A stretch of DNA of 64,000 nucleotides from an uncultured Acidobacteriota bacterium. GTDB lineage: Bacteria; Acidobacteriota; Vicinamibacteria; Vicinamibacterales; UBA2999. This document shows positions 3,276 to 42,875 of this stretch, piece by piece. Under the pieces are notes generated by a model. It was not told the origin of the DNA. It did not search any database and saw nothing but the letters and a program-made list of their open reading frames with translations. Numbering within the stretch: the first letter of the stretch is position 1; each line of letters begins with the position of its first letter. Both the position numbers and the translations under genes were made by a program. Where the stretch lies: positions 2,647,350 through 2,711,349 of the forward strand of contig CAWJVW010000005.1 of assembly GCA_963846425.1 (NCBI GenBank). Direction: 5' to 3'.

Positions 3276-3335
3276 GGGGACAGGCCTTGTCATCGGGGGA
3301 CAGTCCCTGTCATCGGGGGACAGTCCCCCTATCCC
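3276..3335. repeat. 3 tandem 20-bp units with GGGGACAG(G/T)CC core
   Basis: Units are ggggacaggccttgtcatcg (3276-3295), ggggacagtccctgtcatcg (3296-3315) and ggggacagtccccctatccc (3316-3335). The array is intergenic, between the LigD-pol stop (3351) and the DUF1080-like start (3217). Confidence 0.9.
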
Positions 3336-4236: not shown

Positions 4237-4257
4237 AAAAGGGGACTGTCCCCTTTT
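4237..4257. promoter_or_regulatory. perfect 21-bp palindrome AAAAGGGGACTGTCCCCTTTT (candidate operator or hairpin)
   Basis: 10+1+10 perfect inverted repeat centred on T4247. It lies in the 36-bp gap between the ligase stop (4266) and the pol start (4217/4229). It is identical to 24682-24702. Confidence 0.6.
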
Positions 4258-5174: not shown

Positions 5175-7716
5175 ATGAAGTCCATCATTCAGGACGTCCG
5201 CTTCGGCCTGCGCCTCCTGATTCGTCAGCCGGGTTTTACTGCGATCGCGCTCGTGGTGCTGGCGTTGGGTATCGGCGTCAACACAGCGGCGTTCAGCCTG
5301 GTCAACGCGCTGATGCTCAAACCGCGCACTGGAGGAGTTGACGCGGAGCTCGCTGGCGTGTACAGCCGCAATCGCACCAGACCCGACACGTACCGCGAGT
5401 TTTCCTGGGCAGATTACGTCGCCCTTCGCGACGAGACCGATTTGTTCCGATCGCTTGCAGGTCACAGTTTTGGCCTTGTTGGAGTCGACGAGGGCGGGTC
5501 CACACGCCGGGTGTTTGCCAACATCGTGACCGCCAACTTTTTCGAGACGTTCGGCGTGAAGCCGGTACTCGGGCGGTCGTTCACACGCGAGGAAGAACGG
5601 CCCGGCGTAAACATCCCTGCAATCATCTTGAGTTACGGCCTGTGGAAACGTCTGGGCGGGTCGCCCGACATCGTTGGCGAATCGATCACCGTGAACACCC
5701 GAGCCTTCACGATTGTCGGCGTGGCCCCTGAAGGCTTCGGCGGATCGATGGTGATGGTCACCCCGGACGTCTGGGTGCCGACTGGCATGTACGACTCGAT
5801 CGCGTTCGAAGCCGTGAACGAGGGCGAAGCCGCGCGGCTCGGCGCACCTGGATTCCGCGCGCTGATCCTGGTGGCACGACTTCCCGAGGCTGCAACAATT
5901 GGATCACTGACCCCTGGATTGGATCTCGCCACGCGCCGGATGGCTGCTGCCGACCCTGCGGCAAACGCCGAGTACGAGCTCCAGCTTGCGCCGCTCTCAC
6001 GGCTATCGGTCAGCACCCGCCCTCAGACCGACGGCGAACTGACGACGTTTCTGGGACTGCTGCTGTCGCTGGCGGGCGTGGTGCTACTGATCGCGTCGTT
6101 CAATCTCGCCAACATGTTGCTGGCACGCGGTCGCGCACGCAGTCGCGAGTTCGCCATCAGACTGGCCATCGGCGGCAGTCACTGGCGGCTCGTCCGCCAG
6201 CTCGTCATCGAGAGCCTCGTGCTCGCGCTCCTCGGCGGCGTCGGGGGCTTGCTGTTGTCATCGTGGGCAACTCGTTTTCTCTTTACCAACTTACCGGCCG
6301 TGATGCCAGTGTCGCTGGCCTTCGACGCCACGCCGGATGTGCGAGTGCTGGGCGCAACAGTTCTGTTCTCAGGTACTGTCGGCACTTGTCTTCGGCTTGG
6401 GACCAGCGTGGCGGTTCGCACTCACAGAGGTGTTGCCGGCGCTCAAGGAACAAGCCGGGGAAGCTGAGGCACGCCGACTCTGGTTGCGTTGGCTGACGAC
6501 GCGAGACCTACTGGTGATGGGACAGTTGGCGCTGACGTTTGTGATGTTGACGGCGGCGGGCCTCTTCGTCCGCGGTGCGATCGAAGCGGCTGAATCCGAT
6601 CCCGGTTTCACGCTCGATCGCGGCATCATAGCGAACCTCGACACGACGCTCCTGGGCCTGTCGCAGACCGAGAGCCGCAACTTCTATCGGCAGGCGCTCG
6701 AACGATTGCGCCGGCTGCCAGGCGTCCAGGTTGGCGCATTTGCCTCGCACATGCCCTTCGGTGAGTTCGAGGACGCGGTTGGCGTCCAGCTGCCTGGGGC
6801 ACCGCTGCGACGCGGCGATCCTGGGGCACAGGAACGCCTTTTCTCTGCGACCACAGCGAGCATTGGCGCCGGCTACTTCGATGCGATCGGAGTGCCGCTG
6901 CTACGCGGACGCGAGTTCAGCGAGGGCGAGGAGTTCGCCAGCGGTGGCGATGCGCTTGCGATCATCGACGAAACACTCGCCAGGCGATTGTTTCCCGATA
7001 CCGATCCGATTGATCAATCTGTCCAGATCGCGGGCGATCGCGAGGGCGATCCGCCGACGCTCGCGCGTGTCGTCGGCGTCGTCGGTGGTGTACGGCCGAA
7101 TCTGTTCGACGAAGGACCACGGCCCTTCCTGTATCGGCCGTACGGTCAAGAGCCGCGGGGCAGCATGTATTTGCACGCGCGGACGGCGGCGCCGACACCA
7201 ACGGCCGAGGCGGCGATGCTCCCAAGCGTGCGCAGGATGATCACCGAGATCGCGCCGACACCTCCACTGGTGTCGCTCGAGACCCGGCCGATGTTTCGCG
7301 AGCGGAACCTGCTGCTGGCCGTGGTGCGAACGGGAGCCGCGCTGTTCGCTGTATTTGGAGCTGCGGCCCTGACGCTCGCTGCCGTGGGTATTTACGGCGT
7401 CAAGTCGTACCTGGTTTCCCGGCGCACACGTGAAATTGGCGTGCGCGTCGCGCTGGGCGCCGAGCCGCGCGACGTAATCTGGATGGTGATCCGCGAGGGT
7501 CTCGTCCTCATCGGGGCGGGCGTCGTCGCGGGCGCCGCGTTGTCCCTCCTCACGGGTCAGGCCTTGCGAGCCGTGCTCTTCCAGGGCCGCGCGCTCGACT
7601 TACCGGTTATCCTTGCGGCCACAGCGACGCTAATCATCTCGGTCCTCCTGGCGAGCTGGTTGCCCGCGCGGCGCGCAACGCGTGTCGCGCCGGCTACGGC
7701 GCTTCGCAATCAGTAG
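5175..7716 (+). pseudogene. ADOP-family duplicated FtsX/MacB-type ABC permease, split by a frameshift near 6373
   Basis: ORFs 5175..6467 and 6337..7716 are in different frames. Together they are colinear with the intact 808-aa paralogues at 11386 and 44893. The join is ...DVRVLGATVLFS | VLSALVFGLGPAWRFALTEVLPALKEQ, compare [32 protein letters not shown] in the 40394 paralogue. This is either a true pseudogene or an assembly indel. Confidence 0.8.
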
Positions 7717-11385: not shown

Positions 11386-13812
11386 ATGCTGAGCAATCTC
11401 CAGCAGGACCTTCGCTTCGCCGCGCGGGCCTTCCTCCGCGCGCCGCGCTTTACCGTCCCCGCGATACTGGCCTTGGCGCTCGGGATTGGCGCGACCTCGG
11501 CCATATTCAGCGTCGTACGCGGCGTCATTCTCAAGCCGCTGCCGTATCGCGATCCCGACCGCATTGTCGTGGTCTGGGAGAACAATCAGCGGCGGAATCG
11601 TCCACGCAACGTGATTGGCTCGGCGAACTTCGTGGAGTGGCGCGAACGAAACCGATCGTTGGAACACTTGGGGATGGTCGGGCCGTCGCGCTTGAGCGTG
11701 ATCCTCGATGGCCAGCCTGAAGAGGTCTCCGGCCTGTTTGCCTCATCTCACGTGTTTCCGGCGCTCGGCGTCCAGCCTGCGATGGGACGCACGTATACCG
11801 CGGATGAAGACTTGGAAGGTAACGACCGCGTCATCTTGTTGACCCATGAATTCTGGCAGCGGCGTCTCGGCGGCCGCAGCGACGTGCTGGGCACGACCAT
11901 CACCGCGAACGGCAGGCCACGGAGCGTTGTCGGCATCATGCCGCCTGGGTTCACGATCATCGGACAAAAGGCCGACTTCTTGATTCCGTACGGCTGGACG
12001 CTCGAGCGGCTGCGATCGTCACCTGGCCGCGGCTTTTCGCACGGTCTCGCGCGGTTGCGCGAAGGTGTGACGTTCGAACAGGCGGTCGCTGACATGACCA
12101 ACATTGCGGCGCAGCTCGAACAGGAATTCTCGCAACGGAACGCGAACTGGTCGGTGACGCTCGTGCCGGTCCATGAACAGATGGTCGACCAGATTCGTCC
12201 GGCGCTCATGGTCCTCGCGGGCGCCGTGCTGCTCGTGCTTCTCATCGCGTGCGTGAACGTCGCGAACCTGCTGCTCGCGCGCAGCACCGTGCGCGAGCGT
12301 GAGCTCGGCGTGCGCACGGCCCTTGGTGCGGGGCGCTGGCGGCTCTTGCGACAGATGCTCACTGAGAGCTTGTTGCTGTCGGTGATCGGCGGTGTCGCCG
12401 GGCTCGTCCTCGCTGTAGCGTTTCATCGAGGAATGCTTGCGCTCGTGGCGAATCGAATCCCGGTCCCACGGCTCGATCAGGTCTCGCTCGACATGCCCGT
12501 CGTCGCGTTCACGATGGCGCTGGCTCTCGGCACGGGTTTGATCTTTGGCATCATCCCCGCACTGGTTGCATCGAGCACCGCGAGCGACGCCTTGCGCGAA
12601 GGCGGTCGTCACGGTACTGGGCCGCGATCGCGACGCGTGCTCGGCACGCTGGTTGTCGCCGAAGTGGCCCTGTCCTTGGTCCTGCTCGCGGGCGCCGGGC
12701 TGTTAGTGCGGAGCTTCGTTCGACTCCAGAACGTCAGTCCCGGGTTCCGCACCGATGGGGTACTGACTGCGCGCGTGCAGCTTCCCAGCGCGCGATACGA
12801 CGACCCACGACGGTCGGCCGAGTTTTTCACTGAGACGGTGTCGCGCATCGCCGTCCTCCCGGGCGTGCAGAGTGCGGCGGGCGTCAGTTTTCTTCCACTT
12901 GCGGGACCCGGCATCGCGACCAGTTTCCATCGCGCCGATCAACCCGAGCCGGCTCCGGGAGAGTCGCCCACCACCGAGGTACGACCCGTCACGCCGGGCT
13001 TTTTCCGGACTATGGGCATCCCGCATCTGGCAGGTCGTGACTTCACGCAGGCCGACGCTGCAGATAGCCCCTTTGTCGCGATCATCGGTGAAACGCTGGC
13101 GAGGCGGCATCTGGCTGGCGAGAATCCCATCGGCAGACGGCTGCACGTGTCGATAGGTCCTCGAGGAGGGATGAACGTCGAAGTCGTTGGCGTGGTCGGC
13201 GACGTCAAGATGACATCCCTTGATACCGAGGCGCGGCCGGCTGTGTACATTCCACACACGCAGTTGTCTATCGGATTAATGACTCTCCTCGTGCGCACCG
13301 AGACGCCGCCGATGTCGCTGGTCGGCAGCGTCACTGGGGCTGTGCACTCGCTCGATCCCGAATTGCCGCTCGCCGATGTGAGGACGTTGGAAGACGTTGT
13401 GGATGCCACGCTCGCGCGCCCGCGCACGGTATCGGTGCTCCTCACGGCATTCGCATTGATCGCGCTGGTTCTCGCGGGCGTTGGGGTCTACGGCGTGATG
13501 GCATACTCCGTCGCCCAGCGCACGCAGGAGATTGGTGTGCGTATGGCGCTGGGAGCGACCACGCAATCGGTATTCCGTCTTGTGCTCGGCCAGGCGCTGC
13601 GGCTTGTGGCAGCGGGTGTGGTCGTGGGTCTTGTCGCCGCCGGCGCGTTAACGCGACTCCTCGAAACTCTGCTCTACGAAACCGAACCTCTGGATCCCGG
13701 GACGTTTGCGATCACGGCCATTCTGCTCGTCGGCGTTGCGACGCTCGCGTCATACATTCCCGCGCGTCGTGGAACGCGAATCGCCCCCGTCGAGGCGCTG
13801 AGGGCGGAATAG
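11386..13812 (+). CDS. ADOP-family duplicated FtsX/MacB-type ABC permease (intact, 808 aa)
   Basis: N-terminus MLSNLQQDLRFAARAFLRAPRFTVPAILALALGIGATSAIFSVV. There are two FtsX-like 4-TM halves with large periplasmic MacB-like loops. C-terminal ...RIAPVEALRAE. No ATPase gene is adjacent. Confidence 0.88.
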   Translation: MLSNLQQDLRFAARAFLRAPRFTVPAILALALGIGATSAIFSVVRGVILKPLPYRDPDRIVVVWENNQRRNRPRNVIGSANFVEWRERNRSLEHLGMVGPSRLSVILDGQPEEVSGLFASSHVFPALGVQPAMGRTYTADEDLEGNDRVILLTHEFWQRRLGGRSDVLGTTITANGRPRSVVGIMPPGFTIIGQKADFLIPYGWTLERLRSSPGRGFSHGLARLREGVTFEQAVADMTNIAAQLEQEFSQRNANWSVTLVPVHEQMVDQIRPALMVLAGAVLLVLLIACVNVANLLLARSTVRERELGVRTALGAGRWRLLRQMLTESLLLSVIGGVAGLVLAVAFHRGMLALVANRIPVPRLDQVSLDMPVVAFTMALALGTGLIFGIIPALVASSTASDALREGGRHGTGPRSRRVLGTLVVAEVALSLVLLAGAGLLVRSFVRLQNVSPGFRTDGVLTARVQLPSARYDDPRRSAEFFTETVSRIAVLPGVQSAAGVSFLPLAGPGIATSFHRADQPEPAPGESPTTEVRPVTPGFFRTMGIPHLAGRDFTQADAADSPFVAIIGETLARRHLAGENPIGRRLHVSIGPRGGMNVEVVGVVGDVKMTSLDTEARPAVYIPHTQLSIGLMTLLVRTETPPMSLVGSVTGAVHSLDPELPLADVRTLEDVVDATLARPRTVSVLLTAFALIALVLAGVGVYGVMAYSVAQRTQEIGVRMALGATTQSVFRLVLGQALRLVAAGVVVGLVAAGALTRLLETLLYETEPLDPGTFAITAILLVGVATLASYIPARRGTRIAPVEALRAE

Positions 13813-20266: not shown

Positions 20267-20805
20267 TAGGGCTTCGTTCCCCGTGTGGCGAGATATCGTG
20301 TCCGGAGAATCGCAATGTGGTGGATGACGTGGCCTACGGCGAGATACGCGAGTGCACGCACGGTGAACGGGTTTCCGCTGGCGATGCCGCGGCGGCTCCA
20401 GGCCTCGTCCGGGAGATTGCGAAAGAATGACAGGGTTGCCGCTCGGACCGTGCTGAACTCTTCCACGTGAGTGCGCCACGAACGCGCATCAGCGCCCGCC
20501 GCGGATGCCGCAACAGTCTGATCGAAGCTGGGCAACGGGCTCTCGAAGCCGCGTGCAAACCAGAACGCGCGGGAGACGAACAGCCGTTCGGTATCGTTGA
20601 TGTGACTCAGAAGCTGGCGAATGCTCCACTTGCCCGGAGCGTAGCGTTGTCGCGATTGCTCCTCGGTGATGCCCCGCAGCAGCGAGAGTGTCTCGGCCGA
20701 CTGCGCGTGCAGGAGGTCGCAAATGTCGCCGGCCGGCACGCGATCGATATAGCCGAAGTAATATTCAGCCGCCTCGGTGCGATCGGGACGCGTGGTGACG
20801 CTCAT
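20266..20805 (-). CDS. DinB-family (DinB_2) metal-dependent protein
   Basis: MSVTTRPDRTEAAEYYFGYIDRV..., with His motifs LLSHINDTE and GHVIHHIAIL. ATG 20805 overlaps the upstream stop (ATGA). Confidence 0.7.
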   Translation of the reverse strand: MSVTTRPDRTEAAEYYFGYIDRVPAGDICDLLHAQSAETLSLLRGITEEQSRQRYAPGKWSIRQLLSHINDTERLFVSRAFWFARGFESPLPSFDQTVAASAAGADARSWRTHVEEFSTVRAATLSFFRNLPDEAWSRRGIASGNPFTVRALAYLAVGHVIHHIAILRTRYLATRGTKP

Positions 20806-21218
20806 CGCAGCGTCTGCCCAAAGCCCAGGACGTACCCATCGCGGTCCCGCACGGCAAATTCCTCCATGTGATAAGCCTCCTGGAGAATCGGGCCGTACAC
20901 GACGTCCGCACCGTTTGCCCGCAGCTCTCGGTGCAGCGCCCGCGCGTCGCGAACCCAGAAGAACGCGTCCCACGTTCCTCCTTGTTTCTCGTTCGGGGAG
21001 ATGTGCTCCGGCGTTGACACCAACCGCAACATGATGGCCAGGCCGTCTCGGCTCAGGATCACAAACTGTGGCGGCGTACCGCCAGCGTACTCGCGACGGA
21101 AGCCGAGCACGTTTTCATAGTGAGCTGCCGATTGCTCGATGTCCGCGACGACGAAGTACGGAGCGCTGCGGAGCAGCTGATTCGTCGCATTCTCAGGCGT
21201 GGTTTCGTTGGTCACCAA
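20802..21218 (-). CDS. VOC family / bleomycin-resistance-like protein
   Basis: SAPYFVVADIEQSAAHYENVLGF...EFAVRDRDGYVLGFGQ. Confidence 0.7.
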   Translation of the reverse strand: MVTNETTPENATNQLLRSAPYFVVADIEQSAAHYENVLGFRREYAGGTPPQFVILSRDGLAIMLRLVSTPEHISPNEKQGGTWDAFFWVRDARALHRELRANGADVVYGPILQEAYHMEEFAVRDRDGYVLGFGQTLR

Positions 21219-21299
21219 GAAGCCCCCACGGGCTGGATACTGCCCAATATATCGCTGTTACGTCGCTGCATGGTCCATACTAATCGCGCGATTACGACT

Positions 21300-22907
21300 A
21301 TGACGAAGCTGGCTCCGCGAGCGCGCGTGAAATGCTCGGTCATCGCCATTGCGGCAGTCACCACGTTCACGCTGCCCGGTGCCCATCACGCGTCCGGCCA
21401 ATCAGCGGCGAGCGCCAAAGATCGACCGCGACTCGCTGATTCGGATCGGCGCGGGAAGCTGAGCAGTGCGTTCGCCGCGATCGATCGCGTCTTCACCGAC
21501 TTCACCACGAGCGAGCACGTGCCCGGCGCGGCGTGGGGCATCGTGATCGACGGCGAACTCGCACACACAGGCGCGACCGGAAACCGCGATGTGACGTCTA
21601 AGAGCGCCGTCGATCCCGATACGGTGTTTCGCATCGCCTCGATGACCAAGAGCTTCACGGCGATGGCGATTCTGAAACTTCGTGACGAGGGGAAGCTCTC
21701 GCTCGATGATCCTGCGGAGCGTTACGTTCCTGAGCTGAAGAATCTGAGCTACCCAACCAGCGATTCGCCGCGCATCACGATCCGGCACCTGCTCTCACAC
21801 GCGGAAGGCTTTCCGGAAGACAACCCGTGGGGCGATCAACAACTCGCCGCTACGGAAGACGAGATGTCGGCCATGCTGCGGGCGGGGATTCCGTTCTCGA
21901 ATGCACCGGGCGTCTCATACGAGTATTCCAACTACGGCTTCGCGATTCTCGGTCGAATCGTCACGAACGTGGCGAAGATGCCGTATCGCGATTACGTCTC
22001 AGCAAACATTCTGAAGCCGCTTGGCATGCACTTCACAACGCTCGAGCCCTCCTCGGTCACGCCCGAACGGCTGGCGCGCGGTTATCGATGGGAAGACGAG
22101 CGATGGAAAGAGGAACCGCAACTGCGCGACGGCGCGTTCGGACCGATGGGCGGCATGCTGACGTCGATACGTGATCTCGGCCGTTATGTGGCGGCCTTTG
22201 TCTCCGCGTGGCCTCCACGCGATGGTCCGGAGACGGCGCCGATCAAGCGATCGTCCTTGCGCGAGATGCAGCAGATCTCGCGACCGCGCGCCAGCACCGT
22301 GAATCGGACCGCCAACGGCTCGATTCAACTGAACGCCGGCGGGTACGGTTTCGGGCTCGGTATCTCGGAGAGCTGCACGTTTGGCCACGTCGTGGCGCAC
22401 AGCGGCGGGCTCCCAGGGTTTGGCTCCCAAATGCGGTGGCTGCCGGAATACGGCGTCGGCCTCATCGCAGTGGGTAGCCGCACTTACACGGGATGGGGCG
22501 GCGTGTTTTCGACTGCCCTGGAGCTCCTGGACAAGACCGGAGGTCTTCAACGCCGCACGCCGCAGCCGTCGCGCGCGCTTGTCGACGCACGTGACGCCGT
22601 ATCGCGTCTGATCGTTCAATGGGACGATGGCCTGGCGGATCGAATTGCCGCGGAAAATTTGTTTCTGGATCGATCGAAGGATCGCCGGCGTCGCGAAATT
22701 GAGGCGCTGCGCGCCAAAGTTGGCGCGTGTCGTCCCGATGGAACGTTCAGCGATGTCGAAAACGCGCTGCGCGGGTCGTGGTCGCTGGAATGCGAGCGAG
22801 GAGAGCTAGGCGTGTCCATCACCCTGGCGCCAACGATGCCCCCGACGGTGCAGTTCCTCTTGGTCGGTCTTTCGCTGCCGCAGCCGCGGCCGACGTGCGA
22901 ACCGTAA
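21300..22907 (+). CDS. serine hydrolase, class C beta-lactamase-like family
   Basis: Start moved to ATG 21300 (MTKLAPRARVKCSVIAIAAVTTFTLPGAHHASG). SxxK in FRIASMTKSF, a YSN-type motif YEYSNYGF, and HSGGLPGF. Confidence 0.8.
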   Translation: MTKLAPRARVKCSVIAIAAVTTFTLPGAHHASGQSAASAKDRPRLADSDRRGKLSSAFAAIDRVFTDFTTSEHVPGAAWGIVIDGELAHTGATGNRDVTSKSAVDPDTVFRIASMTKSFTAMAILKLRDEGKLSLDDPAERYVPELKNLSYPTSDSPRITIRHLLSHAEGFPEDNPWGDQQLAATEDEMSAMLRAGIPFSNAPGVSYEYSNYGFAILGRIVTNVAKMPYRDYVSANILKPLGMHFTTLEPSSVTPERLARGYRWEDERWKEEPQLRDGAFGPMGGMLTSIRDLGRYVAAFVSAWPPRDGPETAPIKRSSLREMQQISRPRASTVNRTANGSIQLNAGGYGFGLGISESCTFGHVVAHSGGLPGFGSQMRWLPEYGVGLIAVGSRTYTGWGGVFSTALELLDKTGGLQRRTPQPSRALVDARDAVSRLIVQWDDGLADRIAAENLFLDRSKDRRRREIEALRAKVGACRPDGTFSDVENALRGSWSLECERGELGVSITLAPTMPPTVQFLLVGLSLPQPRPTCEP

Positions 22908-22913
22908 GTTGGC

Positions 22914-22963
22914 GATCACTAGATCACTAGATCACTAGATCACCAGATCCCAGATCACCAGAT
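22914..22963. repeat. tandem GATC-containing octamer array (about 6 units)
   Basis: gatcacta x3, gatcacca, gatccca, gatcacca, gat... The array starts 7 nt after the stop at 22907 and ends 15 nt before the SDR ATG (22978). Confidence 0.9.
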
Positions 22964-22977
22964 GCCCCCCGACCCCC

Positions 22978-23733
22978 ATGGATCTCAACGGTAAGACGGC
23001 CTTCGTGACCGGCGGCTCCGGCGACATCGGTGCCGCAATTGCCCAGGCGCTGGCCCGTGCCGGTGCACATGTCGCGATCTCGTACGTCGGACACAAGGAT
23101 GGGGCCATGGCCACGGCGGCCGCGATCGACGCAGCCGGGGTGCGAAGCCTGATGGTGCAACTCGATCAGCGGGATCCAGACTCGATCGACGCGTCGGTCG
23201 ATCAGGTAGTCAAGGGACTGGGACGAGTGGACATTCTCGTCAACAATGCCGGCTGGAACATCGGCATTCCATTCGCGGCGCTCGACGAGCTCACCGCTGA
23301 CATCTGGAACCGTGTCCACGAGACGAATCTACGAGGCCCGTACCTCCTTTCCAGGGCGTTCGCGCCGCATCTACGCGCGCACGGCGCCGGGCGGATTGTC
23401 AATATTGCCTCCGTTGGCGGGCTGCTGCCCGCAAGCAGCAGCGTCGCCTATTCGGCGAGCAAGGCCGGCCTGATTCACCTCACGCGTTGCCTGGCCGTTG
23501 CACTCGCTCCAACGGTCACGGTGAATTGCGTGGCGCCGGGATTGGTGGAAGGAACGCGCATGGCCGAGCGGCTGCCTCCAGCAGTGGCTGAAGGCGCTCG
23601 TCGTCAGGCCGTGCTTGGCCGAACGGCCAGCGTAGCGGACATCGCGGATCAGGTCCTGACATTCTGCCGTGCGGAGTCGGTCACTGGACAGGTGCTCGTC
23701 GTCGACGGCGGCATGCCTGGCGGCATGCATTAG
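22978..23733 (+). CDS. SDR-family oxidoreductase (FabG-like)
   Basis: TGGSGDIGAAIA (TGxxxGxG), NNAG and YSASKAG (YxxxK). Confidence 0.85.
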   Translation: MDLNGKTAFVTGGSGDIGAAIAQALARAGAHVAISYVGHKDGAMATAAAIDAAGVRSLMVQLDQRDPDSIDASVDQVVKGLGRVDILVNNAGWNIGIPFAALDELTADIWNRVHETNLRGPYLLSRAFAPHLRAHGAGRIVNIASVGGLLPASSSVAYSASKAGLIHLTRCLAVALAPTVTVNCVAPGLVEGTRMAERLPPAVAEGARRQAVLGRTASVADIADQVLTFCRAESVTGQVLVVDGGMPGGMH

Positions 23734-23752
23734 CAGATATGATTGCGCCATC

Positions 23753-23808
23753 TTGTGATCTGGTGATCTGGTGATCTTGCGATCTTGCGATCTTGTGATC
23801 TTGTGATT
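23753..23808. repeat. tandem GATC-containing octamer array (7 units), inverted relative to 22914-22963
   Basis: ttgtgatc, tggtgatc x2, ttgcgatc x2, ttgtgatc, ttgtgatt. The unit tggtgatc is the exact reverse complement of gatcacca in the upstream array. Confidence 0.9.
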
Positions 23809-23850
23809 GTCGGTGCTCCCCGATCATCAGAGCACCTCGTACAAACGTCA

Positions 23851-24660
23851 ATGAGCTTCACCGATCTCGCGCTGGCGCGGCGACTCGAAAGGGCCGAGGC
23901 CCAGAGCAACGTCGATTTCGTCGAGGCTCGCGCGCGCGCGTTGCCCGACAGCGGGGCGCAATGGATCGAGGTCGCTGGCGCGTATGCCATGTTCGACGGC
24001 ATCACGTCGCCGCTGACGCAGTCGTTTGGTCTCGGCCTCTTCGACAGGGTTACGGATGCCGAGCTGCAGCGTCTCGAGGCCTTCTTCCAGCAGCGCAGGG
24101 CCCCCGTCTGCCACGAAGTGAGCCCGCTCGCGGATCCGTCACTCCTGCCGTTGCTGAACGCACGCGGCTATCAGCCGATCGAGTTCACGAGCGTCACCTC
24201 ACGTTCATTGACTAGGTCGGCGAGCGTCGAAGGACCGCGCAACGAGCGTATCCGCGTGCGGACTGTCGATGAGAGCGAGTACGACTTGTGGGCCGAAACC
24301 GCCGCGCGCGGATGGATAGAATCTCCCGAGCTGGCTGATTTCATGCTGACCTTGTCGCAAATCAGTGCGCAACGGCAAAACACCGTGTCCTTTCTGGCGG
24401 AACTGAGTGGCCGACCCGTCGCGACTGGCGCGATGAGTCTGTGCGGAGGCGTGGCGCTGCTCGCGGGCGCCAGCACGATCCCAGAGGCGCGAAAGCAGGG
24501 AGCGCAGCTCGCGCTGCTCGACAGCCGCCTGCACTACGCCGCCGAGCATGGCTGCGACATCGCGATGATGTGTGCGCTGCCCGGCAGCGCGTCGCAGCGC
24601 AATGCCGAACGCCAGGGGTTTCGGATCGCATATACGCGCATCAAGTGGAAAAAACTGTGA
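23851..24660 (+). CDS. GNAT-family N-acetyltransferase
   Basis: Start moved to ATG 23851 (MSFTDLALARRLERAEA...). The acetyl-CoA motif region is TIPEARKQGAQLALLDSRLHYAAEHGCD. Confidence 0.65.
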   Translation: MSFTDLALARRLERAEAQSNVDFVEARARALPDSGAQWIEVAGAYAMFDGITSPLTQSFGLGLFDRVTDAELQRLEAFFQQRRAPVCHEVSPLADPSLLPLLNARGYQPIEFTSVTSRSLTRSASVEGPRNERIRVRTVDESEYDLWAETAARGWIESPELADFMLTLSQISAQRQNTVSFLAELSGRPVATGAMSLCGGVALLAGASTIPEARKQGAQLALLDSRLHYAAEHGCDIAMMCALPGSASQRNAERQGFRIAYTRIKWKKL

Positions 24661-24681
24661 GACGCCACTGTCAACGCGCAG

Positions 24682-24702
24682 AAAAGGGGACTGTCCCCTT
24701 TT
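24682..24702. promoter_or_regulatory. perfect 21-bp palindrome AAAAGGGGACTGTCCCCTTTT (candidate operator)
   Basis: Identical to 4237-4257. It lies 22 nt after the GNAT stop, abuts a TATAAT hexamer, and is 25 nt upstream of the thyA ATG. Confidence 0.6.
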
Positions 24703-24707
24703 ATAAT
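24702..24707 (+). promoter_or_regulatory. candidate -10 box (TATAAT) for thyA-folA
   Basis: An exact TATAAT lies 21 nt upstream of the thyA ATG, with GGAAG between them. No convincing -35 element is visible; that position is occupied by the palindrome. Confidence 0.3.
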
Positions 24708-24727
24708 TCTGCACAGGCCGGAAGACC

Positions 24728-25513
24728 ATGAGGGCTTATCTCGACCTCGTTCAGCACGTCCTTGACACCGGGGAGACGCGGGAGGATCGAACAGGCACAG
24801 GCACAATTTCGGTGTTCGGCGCCCAAACCCGCTACGACCTTCGCGAGGGATTTCCACTCCTCACTACAAAAAAAGTTCTGTTTGAGGCTGTTGTCCGTGA
24901 GCTGCTCTGGTTTTTGGGCGGGTGCACGAACACTCATCAACAGAAGCTGCGCGATCACACGCCCATCTGGGACGCCTGGGCTGATGCCGACGGCAATCTG
25001 GGACCCATCTATGGCTATCAATGGCGTAACTGGAACGGCCAGGGCATCGATCAGGTGCAACACGCGATCGATCTGATCAAGAAGAACCCCGCGTCGCGAC
25101 GCATCATTGTCAGCGCGTGGAATCCGGGGCAGCTTGCGGAGATGCGGCTGCCGCCGTGTCACATCCTGTTTCAGTTTTACGTCAGCCGGTCGGGCCGGCT
25201 CGATTGCCAGCTCTATCAGCGGTCCGCCGATCTCGGCCTGGGAGTTCCGTTCAATATCGCGAGCTACGCACTGTTGCTGACGATGATTGCGCAGGAATGC
25301 GACCTGACGCCGGGTGTGTTCGTGCACACGTTGGGGGATGCACACATCTATCTCAATCATCTAGAGGGACTGAAAGAGCAGTTGAGGCGCGACCCGCTCC
25401 CGCTTCCGCGAGTGACCGTCGCCCGCAGGCCATTGGGCGACATCGGGATCGGTGATATCGAGCTGCACGGGTATCAGCACCATCCGTTCATCCGTCTGCC
25501 AGTCGCTGTTTGA
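24728..25513 (+). CDS. thyA: thymidylate synthase ThyA
   Basis: [31 protein letters not shown]..., active site [12 protein letters not shown], and C-terminal ...PVAV. Confidence 0.95.
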
Positions 25514-26079
25514 TGCCTCACTTCGACATTGTCGTCGCGGCCGACGAGGCCGGAGGCATCGGCAAGCAAGGGCAGCTGCCATGGCATCTAAAAAGGGACA
25601 TGGCGCATTTCAAGCGACTGACGCAGGAACCGCCGACCGCCGACACCGTGAACGCGGTGATCATGGGACGCGTCACGTGGCAGTCCATTCCCGAGAAGTT
25701 TCGTCCGTTGCCGAGGCGGATCAACGTAGTCATCTCGGGCAATGCCGCGGTGCCGCTGCCAGACGACGTGATTCGCGCGAAGAGCCTGGACGAAGCACTC
25801 GCCACGCTGGATAGGATGGCTGACGTCGGTCGCGTGTTCGTGATTGGCGGCGGACAGATCTATAGCCAGGCGATCGTGCATCGGGATCTCGACACGATCT
25901 ATCTGACCCGCGTCCATGCCACGTTCAATTGCGACACTCGTTTTCCGGCGATCCCTCGCGCATTCGCGCTCGTTTCCGAGTCGCCGCCGCAGACCGAAGG
26001 ACCGTTGATGTACAGATTCTGCGAATATCGCCGCGCTCCCGCCGCGTCAACCATTCGTCACCGGGGACAGTCCCTGTAA
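25513..26079 (+). CDS. folA: dihydrofolate reductase
   Basis: [24 protein letters not shown]..., VIMGRVTWQSIP and VFVIGGGQIY. The ATG at 25513 overlaps the thyA TGA (TGATG). The last 17 nt lie inside the 20-bp repeat array. Confidence 0.9.
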   Translation: MPHFDIVVAADEAGGIGKQGQLPWHLKRDMAHFKRLTQEPPTADTVNAVIMGRVTWQSIPEKFRPLPRRINVVISGNAAVPLPDDVIRAKSLDEALATLDRMADVGRVFVIGGGQIYSQAIVHRDLDTIYLTRVHATFNCDTRFPAIPRAFALVSESPPQTEGPLMYRFCEYRRAPAASTIRHRGQSL

Positions 26080-26122
26080 CGGGGGGACAGTCCCTGTCAC
26101 CGGGGGACAGTCCCCGTAACGG
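26063..26122. repeat. 3 tandem 20-bp units with GGGGACAGTCCC core
   Basis: Units are ggggacagtccctgtaacgg (26063-26082), ggggacagtccctgtcaccg (26083-26102) and ggggacagtccccgtaacgg (26103-26122). Same family as 3276-3335. Confidence 0.9.
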
Positions 26123-26221
26123 TGATCAGGCGATTCTTGCGCGGTCGTGTGAATTTTTAGCAGCCGCAGGGTTCGGAACTACAATCGGTCGTTCCCGTAT
26201 TCTTCAGATTAGGAGCGCAAG

Positions 26222-27289
26222 GTGGGCATCACAGATTTCTTCAAGGGCGAACTGCTCGAAATCATCGACTGGACCGACGACTCCAGGGACACGCTCTCGT
26301 ACCGTTTTCCGGACGAGGACAAGGCGATCAAGAACGGCGCACAGCTCATCGTCCGAGAGTCGCAGGTCGCCCAGTTCGTGTACCTCGGCGAGTTTGGCGA
26401 TACCTTCAAGCCTGGTAAGCACTCGCTGACCACCGACAACATCCCGATCCTGACCAGGCTGAAGTCGTGGAAGTTCGGCTTCAACTCTCCCTTCAAGGCG
26501 GACGTCTACTTCGTCGTCACGCGCTTGTTCACCGGCAACAAGTGGGGCACATCCAACCCGGTCATGCTCCGCGACAACGACTTCGGCGTCGTGCGGGTGC
26601 GGGCGTTTGGGACCTACGACTTCAAGATTGTGGAGCCGCAGACGTTTCTCCGCGAGGTCGCGGGCTCCGATCACAACTTCAGGCTCGACGAGTTCAGCGA
26701 CACCATGCGCTCGCGCATTGTCAGCATCTTCACCGACGCCGTGGCGTCTGCGAAAATCCCCGTGCTGGACGTCGCCGCGCGGTATACCGAGCTGGGCGAG
26801 GCGCTGCTGCCGTTGATCAATCCCGCGGTCACCTCGAAGTACGGTCTCGCGATCACGAGCTTCATCGTCGAAAACGTGTCGGTGCCCCCGGAGGTTGAGC
26901 AGGCGATCGACAAGCGATCCAGCATGGCCGCGATTGGCAATCTCAACGACTACGTCAAGTATCAGATGGGGAAGGGATTCGAAAGCGGTGGTGGCGCGGG
27001 CGCTGCAGGGACGGCTGCGGAACTGGCCGTTGGTTTCGGTCTGGCGAAAGAGATGATGCAGCAGGGATTCGCCGGCGGACAGGCGACGCCAACCATTGCG
27101 GTCGGCGGCGGCGCCTCCGCCGGCAGCAGTCTCCCCGAACTCATGAGCCCCGCAGAAGCTGCGCAGGCGCTTGGCGTTGCTGAAGCGGACGTGATGGCCG
27201 TCCTCGAAACGGGCGAACTCAAGGGCAAGAAGATCGGATCGACCTGGCGCATCCCGCGCGCGGCCTTGACCAGTTACATGACGCAATAA
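26222..27289 (+). CDS. SPFH/band-7 domain protein (YdjI/COG4260-like) fused to C-terminal excisionase-type HTH
   Basis: GTG start preceded by TAGGAG. The N-terminal ~250 aa read MGITDFFKGELLEIIDWTDD...FIVENVSVPPEVEQAIDKRSSM. A Gly/Ala linker follows. The C-terminus MSPAEAAQALGVAEADVMAVLETGELKGKKIGSTWRIPRAALTSYM fits the HTH_17/excisionase pattern. Confidence 0.75.
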   Translation: MGITDFFKGELLEIIDWTDDSRDTLSYRFPDEDKAIKNGAQLIVRESQVAQFVYLGEFGDTFKPGKHSLTTDNIPILTRLKSWKFGFNSPFKADVYFVVTRLFTGNKWGTSNPVMLRDNDFGVVRVRAFGTYDFKIVEPQTFLREVAGSDHNFRLDEFSDTMRSRIVSIFTDAVASAKIPVLDVAARYTELGEALLPLINPAVTSKYGLAITSFIVENVSVPPEVEQAIDKRSSMAAIGNLNDYVKYQMGKGFESGGGAGAAGTAAELAVGFGLAKEMMQQGFAGGQATPTIAVGGGASAGSSLPELMSPAEAAQALGVAEADVMAVLETGELKGKKIGSTWRIPRAALTSYMTQ

Positions 27290-30000: not shown

Positions 30001-30105
30001 AAAAGGCAAAAGGCAACAGGCAAAAGGCAAAAGGCAAAAGGCACAAGGCAAAAGGCACAAGGCAAAAGGCACAAGGCACAAGGCACAAGGCACAAGACAC
30101 AAGTC
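30001..30105. repeat. 15-unit heptamer array (A[A/C]AAGGC)n
   Basis: The array starts 2 nt after the TAG stop of the M1 gene. Units read aaaaggc x2, aacaggc, aaaaggc x3, acaaggc, aaaaggc, acaaggc, aaaaggc, acaaggc x3, acaagac, acaagtc. I counted it base by base. Confidence 0.95.
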
Positions 30106-30155
30106 AATAGTGAGAAGGCAGAGGAACGACACGCGGTTTGGAGAGGAGGCCGGTC

Positions 30156-36285: not shown

Positions 36286-36447
36286 GACCCGTCCAGGAAT
36301 AAGCGCGCCATTTTCGCAGCCGATGCATCCCGCCTGGCGGCGTTGCTCCTCGCTTGCATACACCCGGTATGCCACGCTCGTCGCGCCTTGCCATACGGGC
36401 GCCTCGACGCCGAGAAATGGCACACTTATTCCCGGACGAATCCTTAC

Positions 36448-37818
36448 GTGCCCAGCAAGACTCCAAGTGAGGTCCTCGAAGTCGCCGGCCGGGAGGTATC
36501 GATATCGAATCCCGACAAAGTGCTGTTCCCCGATGCGGGCTACACGAAGCGGGATCTGGCCCACTACTACCTTTCAGTTGCGGAGGGCGCGCTCGTCGGA
36601 GCAGGTGGACGGCCCAATGTGCTCGTTCGTTATCCGAACGGCATCACCGGCGAGTTCTTCTACCAGAAGCGCGCGCCCGAGTCGCGTCCCGACTGGATCG
36701 AGGTCGTCGCGCTGAAATTTCCATCAGGCCGTACCGCAGAGGAAATGGTGCCGCGGGATGCTGCCGCACTGGTGTGGATGGCAAACCTCGCGTGCCTGGA
36801 GCTGCACCCACACCCCGTGCGGGCCGACGATCTGGATCATCCCGACGAGCTGCGCGTGGACCTGGATCCAGTGCCCGGTGTTGAATGGGCGCAGGTGCGC
36901 GAGGTGGCGCGCGTCGTGGAAGCTGCGCTTGCGGATCTCGGACTCGTCGGCTGGCCCAAGACATCGGGATCGCGCGGCATCCACGTCAACGTGCGGATCG
37001 AGCGGCGCTGGACCTTCCACCAGGTCCGGCGTGCGGCCCTTGCGCTGGCCCGAGAGGTCGAGAGGCGAGCGCCCAGGCTTGCGACGAGCAAATGGTGGAA
37101 GGAAGAACGCCACGGCGTGTTCGTGGACTACAACCAGAACGCAAAGGACCGCACCGTCGCCTCCGCGTACTCCGTGCGTCCCAAGCCCGACGCGCGCGTA
37201 TCGGCGCCGCTGGCGTGGAGCGAAGTCGTCGAGGCAGAACCTGCCGACTTCACACTGAAGACCATGCCGGTGCGTTTCGCAAAGCTGGGTGACCGCCACC
37301 AGGCGATCAACGATCACCCGGGATCATTGGAACGCTTGTTGGAGCTGTCGGCACGACATGAAAAGGAAGGGCTCGGCGACGCGCCGTGGCCACCGCAATA
37401 CAAGAAACAGCCGGGCGAGCCGCCGCGGGTCCAGCCCTCGCGCCGCCGGAAGGCCAGTGACGTGAAATCAGTGGCCAGTGGTCAGAAGCCCGTGCCCAGC
37501 AGTCAGAAGTCAGAGGCCAGCGGCCGGCGCCGATCGAAGCATCCGCTGATCGAAATCGGTCGCGCACAAAAGAAAGAGGACGCCCTGGCTGGCCTGGAGC
37601 GCTGGAAGGAGCGTCATCCTACGGCGGCCGAACACCTCGAGCCCGCCGATGTGCTCGTGGACGCGATGCGTGGGCGTTCGTCCACGTGGACGCGGGTGCG
37701 GATCAACTTGCAGCATGTGCCAGCCAGTCTTCGACCCGAGCAAGAAGCCCTCGATCCCGATGATCCGCCCGAAGGCTTCACCGAGTGGCAAAGACTTTCT
37801 CGAGCTCGTAAGGCATAG
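36448..37818 (+). CDS. AEP primase-polymerase (LigD Pol-like / Prim-PolC-like) with ~145-aa C-terminal extension
   Basis: ...LEVAGREVSISNPDKVLFPDAGYTKRDLAHYY, catalytic RVDLDP, and SGSRGIHVNVRI. The start is ambiguous: GTG 36448 is preferred, and the track uses TTG 36343. The 3' end overlaps the convergent ligase gene by 41 nt. Confidence 0.85.
   Translation: MPSKTPSEVLEVAGREVSISNPDKVLFPDAGYTKRDLAHYYLSVAEGALVGAGGRPNVLVRYPNGITGEFFYQKRAPESRPDWIEVVALKFPSGRTAEEMVPRDAAALVWMANLACLELHPHPVRADDLDHPDELRVDLDPVPGVEWAQVREVARVVEAALADLGLVGWPKTSGSRGIHVNVRIERRWTFHQVRRAALALAREVERRAPRLATSKWWKEERHGVFVDYNQNAKDRTVASAYSVRPKPDARVSAPLAWSEVVEAEPADFTLKTMPVRFAKLGDRHQAINDHPGSLERLLELSARHEKEGLGDAPWPPQYKKQPGEPPRVQPSRRRKASDVKSVASGQKPVPSSQKSEASGRRRSKHPLIEIGRAQKKEDALAGLERWKERHPTAAEHLEPADVLVDAMRGRSSTWTRVRINLQHVPASLRPEQEALDPDDPPEGFTEWQRLSRARKA
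37454..37523 (+). repeat. heptamer-periodic tract inside the Prim-Pol CDS
   Basis: Units are ccagtga cgtgaaa tcagtgg ccagtgg tcagaag cccgtgc ccagcag tcagaag tcagagg ccagcgg. They are translated as 7-aa repeats ASDVKSV/ASGQKPV/PSSQKSE/ASGRRRS. Confidence 0.75.
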
Positions 37819-40393: not shown

Positions 40394-42875
40394 ATGCTGC
40401 GGGGGTGTCGCCATCGAAGCATTTCTCAAGGATTTAAGGCACTCGCTGCGAGCGTTCGCCAAGAGTCCGGCGTTCACGCTCGCCGCTATCGCGGCGCTCA
40501 CGCTCGGTATTGGCGCCAACACGGCGATTTTCTCCGTCGTCAACGCGATCATGCTGCGGCCGGTGGCTTTCCCCGATGCCGACCGCATCGTCGCGTTCAT
40601 GAACGTGTCGGCGGGCGGGTCGGGTGGCGGCGCCTCGCCCGCCAAATTCTGGCATTGGCACGACCAGACAAGCGTCGTGCAGGATGTCGCCGCCTATCGT
40701 GGTGGCATCGTGAATTACACCGGCGGAACGTTTCCAGAACAGCTCCGTTCCGGGCAGGTATCCATCGACTTCTTCAGGCTTTTTGGCGCACCTGTGGCAT
40801 TGGGCCGCACGTTTGCGGCAGAGGAAGACGCGCCCGATGGTCCAAAGGTTGCCGTGCTCAGCCAGAGCACGTGGGCCACGCGTTTCAACAGCGATCCGCA
40901 AGTTGTCGGCAAGTCGATTTCCCTCAGCGGCGAACCATTCACGATCGTTGGCGTCCTTGGCGAGTTCGACTTTGGGGAGTTCGGGCTGGCGCCCCACGTG
41001 TGGACTGCCTTTCAGCTTGATCCCAACACCACCGACCAGGGGCACTTCTTCCAGGCCGCCGGACGTCTGAAGCCCGGTGTCACGCTCGAGCAGGCGAAAG
41101 CCGGGCTCGATCTCTCGGCAAAGGAGTTCGAGCGTAAGTTCCCGGGCGCGTTGGGCCAGGGCAACAGCTTCACCGTCGAGCCGGTGAAAGAGGTGCTGGT
41201 TCGCAACGTTCGCACGTCGCTCTTCGTGCTCGTAGGTGCTGTCACGTTCGTGCTGCTGATTGCGTGCGCGAATGTCGCGAACCTTCTGATGGTGCGTGCA
41301 ACGGGTCGGAAGCGGGAGATCGCGCTCAGGGCCGCGCTCGGTGGATCGCGCAGACGAATCGCTCGTCAACTCCTCACCGAGAGCGTCGTGCTCGCGTTCG
41401 CGGGAGGCGTGCTGGGTCTCATCGTTGGGCTTGTCGGGATTCGCGCGCTGCTATCGGTTAACACGGCGGGCTTTCCACGCGTGGGTGTCGATGGCGCGCT
41501 GGTGGGGCTGGATTGGCGCGTGCTCGGGTTCACGCTCGTCATCGCGCTTGGAACCGGCATCCTCTTTGGTCTCTTTCCGGCATTTCAGAGCGCTCGCACC
41601 GACCTGACGACGACGCTCAAGGAGGGCGGGGGACGATCTGGGACAGGCTTCCGGCAGAACAAAGCGCGATCGATCCTGGTCGTGACCGAGGTTGCACTGG
41701 CGCTCATTCTGCTCGTCGGATCGGCGCTCCTCATTCGCACGGCCGTGGCGCTCGGCCGTGTCGATCCAGGCTTTGATGCACGCAACATTCTCACCATGCG
41801 GATGTCGCTGACGGGGCCGCGATTCCTGCAATCGGAAGGCGTCGAGCAGATCGTCCGCGACGGCGTCGAACGATTGCGCGGCGTCCCTGGTGTCGTGTCT
41901 GCCAGCGCCACGTGTTGCGTGCCGCTCGAGGGCGGCTACGGTTTGGGGTTCACCATCGTTGGCCGGGCCCTTCCGCAGGACCGCCCGTCCCATGGCGTCG
42001 GCCAGTGGATGACCGCGTCGCCCGGTTATTTCGATGTGTTCAAGATCCCCGTGAAGCGCGGCCGTGCGTTCAACGATCGCGACAACAGCGCGGCACAGCG
42101 GGTCGTCGTCATCAACGAGGCCATGGCGAAGGAGTTCTGGCCGGAAGGGGATCCGCTGAACGATCGCCTCGTGATCGGTCGAGGTGTCATGAAAGAGTTC
42201 GCCACCGAATCCGAACGCCAGATCATCGGCATTGTCGGCAACACGCGTGATGGCGGGTTGAACAACGATCCCGGCCCCGCGATGTTCATTCCGCAAGCGC
42301 AAGTGCCCGACGCGGTGAACGCCTTGAACGTGCGCATCACCCCGATCGCATGGGTCGTGCGGACCGAGGGTAATCCCAACCTTGTCAGTACCCAGGTGCA
42401 GGAGCAGCTTCGTCAGGCCACTGGCCTTCCTGTCACCAATGTGAGGTCGATGGAGGAGGTCGTGTCGCGCTCGACGTCGCGTCAACGATTCAACATGTGG
42501 CTGATGACCGTGTTTGGCGTATGCGCCTTGCTCCTCGCGGCAATAGGGATTTACGGATTGATGGCGTACGCGGTTGAACAGCGCACACAGGAGATCGGGA
42601 TTCGCCTGGCGCTCGGGGCCAGCGCGTCCAAGGTGAAGAAGATGGTGGTTCGGCAGGGGATGATCCTGGCGATTGCCGGCGTAGTCATTGGGCTGGCCGC
42701 CGCATTTGCCCTCGCACGCCTCATGGAAACGCTGCTCTTCGGCGTGACCACGCAGGATGCGCTGGTGTTTGTGGGTGTGCCGGTGCTGTTGACGCTGGTC
42801 GCGTTCGTCGCAGTCTGGCTGCCGGCGCGGAAAGCCAGCAAAGTCGATCCGATGGTTGCGCTGCGGTACGAATGA
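40394..42875 (+). CDS. ADOP-family duplicated FtsX/MacB-type permease; N-terminus apparently out of frame at a G5 run (40401-40405)
   Basis: The main frame has no ATG/GTG/TTG between the TAA at 40392 and ATG 40551. It nevertheless encodes the conserved N-terminus ...VAIEAFLKDLRHSLRAFAKSPAFTLAAIAALTLGIGANTAIFSVVNAIMLRP. ATG 40394 is in another frame. Removing one G from GGGGG gives MLRGVAIEAFLKDL... A track-style call would be 40551..42875, which lacks TM1. Confidence 0.75.

Follow-up and report, generated by a model that had tools for sequence, protein, structure and literature searches.

The stretch of DNA analysed here (64 kb from a Vicinamibacterales member of the Acidobacteriota, hereafter the window) contains a gene for an oxidoreductase of the short-chain dehydrogenase/reductase (SDR) family, enclosed by two mutually inverted arrays of GATC-containing octamers. 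The SDR gene (22978..23733, + strand; stop codon at 23731-23733) encodes 251 aa and was placed correctly by the first-pass annotation, as judged from a match to Pfam adh_short (E = 6e-52) and thousands of 251-aa homologues, 3291 of them at E <= 1e-40. Array A (22914..22963, + strand) lies in the 70-nt spacer upstream, 6 nt after the TAA of a beta-lactamase-family (bla) open reading frame (ORF) and 14 nt before the SDR ATG. It consists of GATCACNA units, which follow one another as three copies of GATCACTA, then GATCACCA, GATCCCA and GATCACCA, ending in GATG. Array B (23753..23808, - strand) lies downstream, separated by 19 nt from the SDR stop and by 42 nt from the ATG of a gene for a GNAT-type acetyltransferase. 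Its sense strand reads TTGTGATC, TGGTGATC twice, TTGCGATC twice, TTGTGATC and TTGTGATT, which on the minus strand corresponds to seven units of the types GATCACAA, GATCACCA and GATCGCAA. We denote as F the strand with (A)GATCACCA-like, C/A-rich units and as R the strand with TGGTGATC-like, G/U-rich units; on the sense strand, array A is in F and array B in R orientation.

The bracketing of the SDR gene by inverted GATC-octamer arrays, noted already in the first-pass annotation, is evident from the sequence itself and from three kinds of search. Tandem Repeats Finder detects both arrays with a period of 8 (A: 6.4 copies, score 72; B: 7.2 copies, score 88), and an inverted-repeat search finds arms of 39 nt with 85% complementarity and 801 nt between them. 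A two-unit pattern with up to two mismatches has 10 matches in the 64 kb, every one of them within A or B, against an expectation of 0.39 from shuffled sequences, and 10 matches were reached in none of 100 shuffles. A and B are the sole arrays of this type in the window. Each holds six GATC sites, as the first-pass annotation had counted; the uniform 8-bp spacing that it gave applies to B, whereas the gaps in A are 8, 8, 8, 8 and 7 bp, the shorter unit being one that the annotation had itself listed. The letters of both arrays are the same in the window and in a metagenome contig that is 99.95% identical to it (L001, 3.33 Mb, from ENA).

The genes around the arrays form a run of five co-directional genes with short spacers, all on the + strand. 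The bla gene (serine hydrolase, Pfam PF00144 with E = 2e-66) extends over 21120..22907, with the TAA at 22905-22907, and its true start probably lies downstream of 21120. The SDR gene is followed by the GNAT gene (23851..24660, Pfam PF13480 and PF00583), thyA for thymidylate synthase (24728-25513) and folA for dihydrofolate reductase (25510-26079), the last two as called in L001 and in two related contigs, L002 and L004. Directly 3' of array B there is a small hairpin on the + strand (23812..23836, GGTGCTC-11 nt-GAGCACC), which is part of the minimum free energy (MFE) fold of the region and has no T-tract behind it; it was not called a terminator. Scanning the whole window against Rfam gave nothing at gathering thresholds. 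A promoter and terminator scan of positions 20500-26500, based on sigma-70-like models that leave the promoter types of this phylum uncovered, gave counts not above those of shuffled sequences and no site at the arrays.

A lineage-wide family of octamer arrays

To place the two arrays in a wider context, we searched the bacterial and archaeal species, each represented by a single genome, with the pattern (GATCNCNA)x3+GATC, for which the number of matches is a lower bound. Loci were drawn as 8-kb stretches and were chosen through the GATC pattern itself. At least 115 stretches match; among the matches listed, about 75 come from Acidobacteriota, mostly Vicinamibacteria/Vicinamibacterales, and the richest genomes are MFD04850.bin.2.120 with 12 loci, CA_2019_TPBF_130 with 9 and several others with 5-6. 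Outside the arrays, the window has nucleotide matches among the 115 loci, which span many phyla, in metagenome-assembled genomes (MAGs) of Vicinamibacterales alone, at 69-75% identity; these matches and the permeases described below mark the window as acidobacterial. Requiring at least four GATC sites at 7-9-nt spacing, we recognized about 87 arrays in 69 acidobacterial loci plus the window. Genes in these loci were called with a simple codon-usage caller, which agrees with the gene calls of L001 over most of the region checked; 79 of 85 sub-arrays fall outside called genes. The first-pass annotation had suggested looking in the genome for further arrays and for their pairing around single genes. 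Across these genomes many arrays are present, and none of the 69 loci has another gene with an F array before it and an R array behind it.

The family has the unit consensus A-GATC-N-C-N, with variable positions 5 and 7. GATC, C6 and A8 are constant across units, so the conserved part is wider than a Dam site. The commonest unit is GATCACCA, which is the major one in 29 of 79 arrays, and GATCACTA, of the ACTA type, is the major one in 3 of 79. The same loci carry 62 arrays of non-GATC units, 6-11 nt long (mostly 7, 8 and 9 nt) and unrelated in sequence, some of which occur in inverted pairs. Short tandem repeats have thus settled in the spacers of these genomes quite generally.

Arrays of the same kind turn up sporadically elsewhere. 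Five loci (L011, L018, L045, L074 and L076) belong to a single Bifidobacteriaceae MAG, and long pure arrays (L030, L055, L085, L099 and L104) are present in a Clostridia MAG (15 units), in a Planctomycetota genome (16 units) and in genomes of Lacisediminimonas, Microbacterium and Paracoccaceae. In these non-acidobacterial arrays GATCACCA is again the commonest unit.

The window also holds a heptamer array (30001-30107, about 15 copies of AAAAGGC and CAAGGCA) between two + strand genes. Near 30059 it is shorter by one 7-nt unit in the otherwise 99.95%-identical L001, a difference that is direct evidence of the gain or loss of a unit, or else of a difference in assembly.

Orientation and placement of the arrays

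The arrays are placed by strand with respect to gene ends. Among arrays whose closest gene boundary, at up to 100 nt, is a stop codon, R-sense outnumbers F-sense by 33 to 10; among those closest to a start codon, F-sense prevails by 18 to 9 (Fisher p = 4e-4 over both boundaries). Geometrically this amounts to one rule, with R at the left and F at the right of a spacer. R-sense arrays begin at a median of 11 nt past the stop, 24 of the 33 at 5-17 nt, and several ORFs terminate inside the first, degenerate unit of such an array. The share of spacers occupied by arrays is 24% for convergent, 13% for co-directional and 7% (5/70) for divergent gene pairs (p = 0.01). When two inverted arrays lie within 1 kb of each other, their order is R-then-F in all 12 acidobacterial cases, 10 of which are less than 100 nt apart, and since their unit variants mostly match, these pairs make near-perfect palindromes. 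The non-GATC arrays, tested for a rule of strand composition, gave no signal (16 vs 11).

The window arrays obey the gene-end rule, F preceding the SDR start codon and R following the stop codon. Taken as a pair they are atypical: the order is F-then-R, the arrays are 790 nt apart and the sample contains no other such bracket around a gene. The only other inverted arrays around an ORF in the sample are found in L090 (6935-7513), where R and F arrays are 499 nt apart, in the polarity opposite to that of the window. The small ORF between them has a borderline match to PF05635, the family of 23S rRNA intervening-sequence proteins (32.5 bits, cut-off 33.8); its reading frame stays open up to the F array and continues through that array into the next gene.

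The same locus in relatives

We compared the closest SDR homologues with available flanks, giving identities as SDR nucleotide identity to the window. The closest, L202 (97.1%), has both arrays. L205 (89%) has array B in a degenerate form and, behind the same upstream gene, an unrelated 139-nt spacer in place of array A. L203 (84%) has neither array. Array A without B is present in three metagenomes, L004-6 (81%, 4 units), and in L002 (78%, 6-7 units), and both arrays are absent from L003 and L204 (76%). Wherever array A occurs (L202, L002 and L004-6), it is in the same place as in the window and differs in the order and number of its units. Even at 97.1% SDR identity change is apparent: in L202 array A still has 6 units, in a different order, and array B is longer, with 9 units where the window has 7. 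The hairpin behind array B is kept in L202 and partly in L205.

These relatives share the gene order of the window. The complete order bla-SDR-GNAT-thyA-folA is found in L002 and L004, which have array A only, and bla-SDR in L205, with B only, and in L202, with both; the beta-lactamase-family gene is the upstream neighbour in L002, L003, L004-6, L202 and L205. In L126 the SDR gene is followed by GNAT after 4 nt, with no downstream array, on a contig that starts 5 nt before the SDR gene and so cuts off the upstream side. The closest relative in JGI (P0124) would have spacers of 7-8 nt, going by its gene calls. A metagenome scan with the SDR protein yielded 80 loci from more distant relatives, all at or below 84% identity, and the flanks of the first 35 contain no GATC array.

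The spacer behind the SDR stop has been colonised by unlike repeats in different lineages. In L122 (after 1383) and L130 (after 1584), SDR homologues with 80-82% aa identity are followed by heptamer arrays, of AAGAATT and GGGGACT, respectively, where the window has array B.

Because the same gene order is seen whether a relative has two arrays, one or none, the SDR gene is a stable resident and not mobile: it is an ordinary conserved chromosomal gene and no passenger, around which the arrays come and go independently. This bears on the suggestion of the first-pass annotation that a small non-autonomous cassette might have its termini in the arrays, which would make them the terminal inverted repeats of a mobile element carrying the SDR gene. 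Inverted 39-nt arms with 85% complementarity that enclose exactly one gene would fit such a cassette, and so would the ORF with its borderline PF05635 match between the inverted arrays of L090. However, the SDR gene keeps its position in relatives with one array or none, A and B differ in age (see below), no transposase gene is nearby, and no target-site duplication flanks the arms (GTTGGC on the left vs GTCGGT on the right). Nor does the element behave as a MITE would, since no polymorphism of presence and absence of the whole unit was seen among the relatives and no second copy was found in the window or in the 69 loci, which also lack any further F-gene-R bracket. That the SDR gene is present throughout the strains compared and the arrays vary is most of what the first-pass annotation had itself named as speaking against the idea. 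We give the cassette next to no credence.

Relationship between arrays A and B

Array A is the older of the two, judging from its presence at 78-81% SDR identity and the restriction of B to the closest relatives. A direct relationship between the two is suggested by L202. There array A reads ACCA, ACCA, ACTA, ACTA, ACCA, ACCA, and the reverse complement of array B reads ..., GCCA, ACCA, ACTA, (T)ACTA, ACCA, ACCA, ACCA, ..., so that the rare ACTA units form an adjacent pair in the same context in both arrays. In the window, array B has TTGT and TTGC units that mismatch the ACTA units of array A. Array B was probably copied in inverted form from A, or is a partner with which A exchanges units, and would date from the ancestor that the window strain shares with L202 and L205.

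Alternatively, two arrays of a common type might have been born independently in adjacent spacers. GATC-octamer arrays are common in the lineage, GATCACCA is the commonest unit, and the orientation rule by itself predicts F before and R after a gene. Away from ascertained hits, however, the density of arrays is roughly estimated at one per 50-100 kb, which makes independent origin of A and B unlikely, the chance of an array in the adjacent spacer amounting to a few percent. Together with the rare ACTA units that the L202 arrays share in the same local order and with nearly perfect complementarity, this leaves coincidence as a very unlikely account.

Predicted pairing of the arrays in RNA

When the region 22908-23850 is folded, A pairs with B in both the MFE and the centroid structures (z = -5). 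If the two arrays stand on one RNA, the predictions strongly favour a duplex of about 45-50 bp that loops out the SDR ORF, with an energy of -70.3 kcal/mol in the window and -95.8 kcal/mol in L202, where it is almost perfect. Pairing between the two flanks, as the first-pass annotation had proposed, is accordingly predicted by both folds and duplex energies, but it is dispensable, L205 having no A and L002 and L004-6 no B. Furthermore, array A of the window would pair better with array B of L202 (-92.5 kcal/mol) than with its own, which argues that the complementarity is not being maintained. Since the pairing is not conserved among relatives and has become imperfect in the window, we read the duplex as a by-product.

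The opposite view is that the A:B stem is a functional RNA device, cut by RNase III so as to free or stabilise a monocistronic SDR mRNA that is uncoupled from its neighbours. Besides the folds and duplex energies, the matching rare ACTA/TAGT units in both L202 arrays and the run of five co-directional genes with short spacers would suit such a device, and hairpins formed by the STRR repeats in operon spacers of cyanobacteria have been proposed to serve transcript stability or translational coupling (PMC2670836). Yet L205, at 89% identity, retains B behind a gene whose 139-nt upstream spacer lacks A, four relatives (L002 and L004-6) have A without B, and in the window complementarity has decayed to 85% through changes that are uncompensated. 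The F-then-R polarity is also opposite to that of the 12 typical inverted pairs, and the spacing far exceeds theirs. On balance, a maintained device of this kind seems unlikely to us.

A possible role of GATC methylation or protein binding

GATC itself is kept in about 80-100% of the units at the SDR locus in all strains, at the same time as positions 5 and 7 vary, and GATC-containing units dominate the period-8 arrays, although the loci were ascertained via GATC. In the window GATC is neither avoided nor enriched (523 observed vs 545 expected from the trinucleotide background, a ratio of 0.96 that is uninformative about a methylase or restriction system). These observations are compatible with a role at the DNA level, in which clusters of Dam-type methylated GATC sites with a methylation-sensitive binder, as the first-pass annotation had suggested in the form of a methylation-sensitive switch, or tandem one-unit operators, would switch SDR expression, either heritably or according to copy number. 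Several features are at odds with it. Neither array has a sigma-70-like promoter, the promoter types of the phylum lying outside the scan; with a period of 8 bp, neighbouring GATC sites face different sides of the helix; C6 and A8 vary as little as GATC does; and the family is found mostly just behind stops and in convergent spacers, being rarest (5/70) in the divergent, promoter-bearing ones. Neither a methyltransferase nor a candidate binder was identified in the DNA covered, the 64 kb and the 8-kb loci. A switch of this sort, whether heritable or dependent on copy number, is in our opinion improbable.

Three further resemblances were considered and set aside. Tandem operators of the omega/MetJ type, arrays of 7-8-bp boxes bound by ribbon-helix-helix repressors, differ in both unit and period. 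Junctions of R-F pairs recall the CRP consensus (TGTGATCTAGATCACA), with inconsistent spacing of 0, 6 or 7 nt in the junctions read. Finally, GAUCACC is the universal 3' end of 16S rRNA and GGUGAUC an extended Shine-Dalgarno sequence; however, mimicry of 16S rRNA is not specific to stops, ACCA being the commonest type in every class of arrays, and many arrays have units that break the match.

Comparison with known repeats

No paper in the library searched contains the exact repeat strings, and searches on tandem or intergenic repeats of Vicinamibacter and on GATC octamers in general gave nothing relevant. The statement of the first-pass annotation that no element of this form had been described therefore stands for the exact sequences but not for the class, which is known from the STRR repeats, heptamers of heterocystous cyanobacteria that can form hairpins in operon spacers and whose function was described as unknown in 2009 (PMC2670836). 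In both cases lineage-specific tandem arrays of short units are dispersed over intergenic spacers, operon spacers included, and hairpins can form through inverted arrays, here in the 12 R-F pairs and in the predicted pairing across 0.8 kb in the window. The arrays depart from STRR in the strict sense, as the acidobacterial unit is 8 nt long (occasionally 7) with a GATC core instead of 7 bp. The host is also different, Acidobacteriota (Vicinamibacteria) rather than heterocystous cyanobacteria, and in the window the inverted partners have a gene and 0.8 kb between them. We know of no gene-end orientation rule for STRR such as the one followed here. By analogy, the arrays may be regarded as an acidobacterial, GATC-centred, octameric counterpart of STRR-type repeats, of which we found no description.

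Likenesses to other systems are more partial. REP, REPIN and BIME elements are likewise multi-copy, extragenic, enriched behind genes and in convergent spacers, and arranged as inverted doublets of fixed polarity that give long hairpins; however, a REP is a single imperfect palindrome of about 20-40 nt, whereas the arms here are tandem octamers of variable number and variant. REPs are mobilised by RAYT transposases, none of which was seen here, where no search was aimed at them. HIP1 (GCGATCGC), most of which is contained in TTGCGATC, is also a lineage-specific, over-represented, GATC-centred octamer, but a dispersed single palindrome that occurs inside genes as well, not a tandem array in spacers. 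The abundance of HIP1 has been linked to DNA methyltransferases. The stems cut by RNase III that flank rRNAs and 23S intervening sequences share with our case the flanking complementarity and the extended duplex, predicted here, around an RNA segment; those stems are conserved and their cleavage is established, while the A:B complementarity is predicted and neither conserved nor compensated among relatives. With contingency loci, the phase-variable simple sequence repeats, the arrays have in common short tandem units whose number varies between close strains, but those loci lie in ORFs or between the promoter hexamers of surface or restriction genes, and the arrays are found genome-wide behind stops and in leaders, where an 8-nt unit in a spacer has no effect on frame. 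Dam-dependent switches of the pap/agn43 type have GATC in regulator sites of promoter regions; no promoter-like site was found at the arrays in a scan that is not specific to the phylum.

Other features of the SDR gene and the window

No NCBIfam model reaches its cut-off with the SDR protein, the best being FabG or glucose dehydrogenase-like. Below threshold it also matches the models of pteridine reductase and of TmpR, a bifunctional dihydropteridine/dihydrofolate reductase, and in several relatives the SDR gene stands two genes upstream of thyA-folA; a role in folate or pterin metabolism is possible. In the GNAT gene, L001 has one C more at window position 24281, which splits the ORF into two called genes and reflects either a sequencing error or a strain-level frameshift.

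A second repeat family in the window has the palindromic core GGGGACAGTCCC(T/C)GT, with 8 copies vs 0.55 expected (3276-3330, 4239-4253, 24684-24698 and 26063-26117), and appears twice as three tandem 20-mers. One copy is in the spacer between GNAT and thyA and one triple overlaps the end of folA. In L205, the spacer between bla and SDR, which lacks array A, has a similar motif, CCCTGTCAGGGA. From bla to folA, every spacer of the cluster holds some repeat.

Elsewhere in the window, three duplicated permeases of the ADOP family score above the cut-off of NCBIfam TIGR03434. The full-length ones are at 11386-13812, 40551-42875 and 44893-47319, and a shorter FtsX/MacB-type permease is at 6337-7716. 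Several ADOP/MacB-type permeases in 64 kb are typical of Acidobacteriota. A gene with a LigD primase-polymerase domain (36343-37818) contains a 21-nt tandem repeat (37464-37521, 2.8 copies), which would give an in-frame repeat of 7 residues in the protein.

Interpretation

Taken together, these results establish both arrays as genuine, unstable intergenic members of a lineage-wide octamer family and the SDR gene as not mobile. On this basis we lean, with modest confidence, towards an explanation in which the arrays change by slippage and local copying and their orientation is filtered by tolerance, with the duplex a by-product. A and B are members of a GATC-centred octanucleotide family that inhabits the intergenic spacers of Vicinamibacteria-type genomes beside other arrays of 7-9-nt units. 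Slipped-strand mispairing, together with local copying from one array to another, may create such arrays and alter them, and B would be an inverted copy of the older A that landed in the next spacer not long ago, in an ancestor shared by the window strain with L202 and L205. The orientation rule could then reflect which strand is tolerated beside starts and which beside stops. With its GTG/TTG start codons and GGUGA-like motifs, the R strand may be harmful before genes, and most of its variants have TGA or TAG in all frames, which would be harmless or useful behind a gene; the F strand has none of these. If the five genes are co-transcribed, the A:B duplex would be a plausible substrate of RNase III, as a by-product rather than a maintained device.

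A number of observations weigh against this explanation. The explanation offers no route by which an inverted copy of an array would reach the next spacer at a distance of 0.8 kb. The orientation statistics rest on simple codon-usage gene calls and on loci ascertained through the arrays themselves, and, as regards the proposed tolerance filter, the variants whose R strand is free of stops (CCCA, GCAA and GCCA) show the same orientation trend, in small numbers. The constancy of GATC, C6 and A8 next to the variable positions 5 and 7 hints at something beyond neutral slippage, and to this must be added the persistence of array A in one spacer down to 78% gene identity, the fixed R-then-F polarity of all 12 inverted pairs and the enrichment of arrays in convergent spacers.

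A bolder reading, which we put forward as quite unlikely, is that the arrays are strand-specific punctuation of transcripts in Vicinamibacteria, providing C/A-rich unstructured leaders, G/U-rich trailers and paired stems for processing or insulation. The core of the G/U-rich trailer, GGUGAUC, would be complementary to GAUCACC of the 16S rRNA 3' end, a part of the reading that we hold just as doubtful, and, with no greater confidence, the pair around the SDR gene would excise or insulate a single cistron from an operon transcript.

Vicinamibacteria are abundant and little studied in soil, and their genomes may each hold dozens of GATC-centred octamer arrays (12 loci being the highest number among the matches listed). 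These arrays have regularities that are not obviously explained by slippage alone, namely the constant GATC, C6 and A8, the position within about 10 nt of stops, the orientation at gene ends and the R-then-F order of neighbours. As they change faster than the nearby genes, they could be useful as strain markers, and they may break short-read assemblies. A second, independent lineage with an STRR-like system, for which many long-read MAGs exist, would allow comparative tests between a mutational by-product, punctuation of RNA and sites for proteins.

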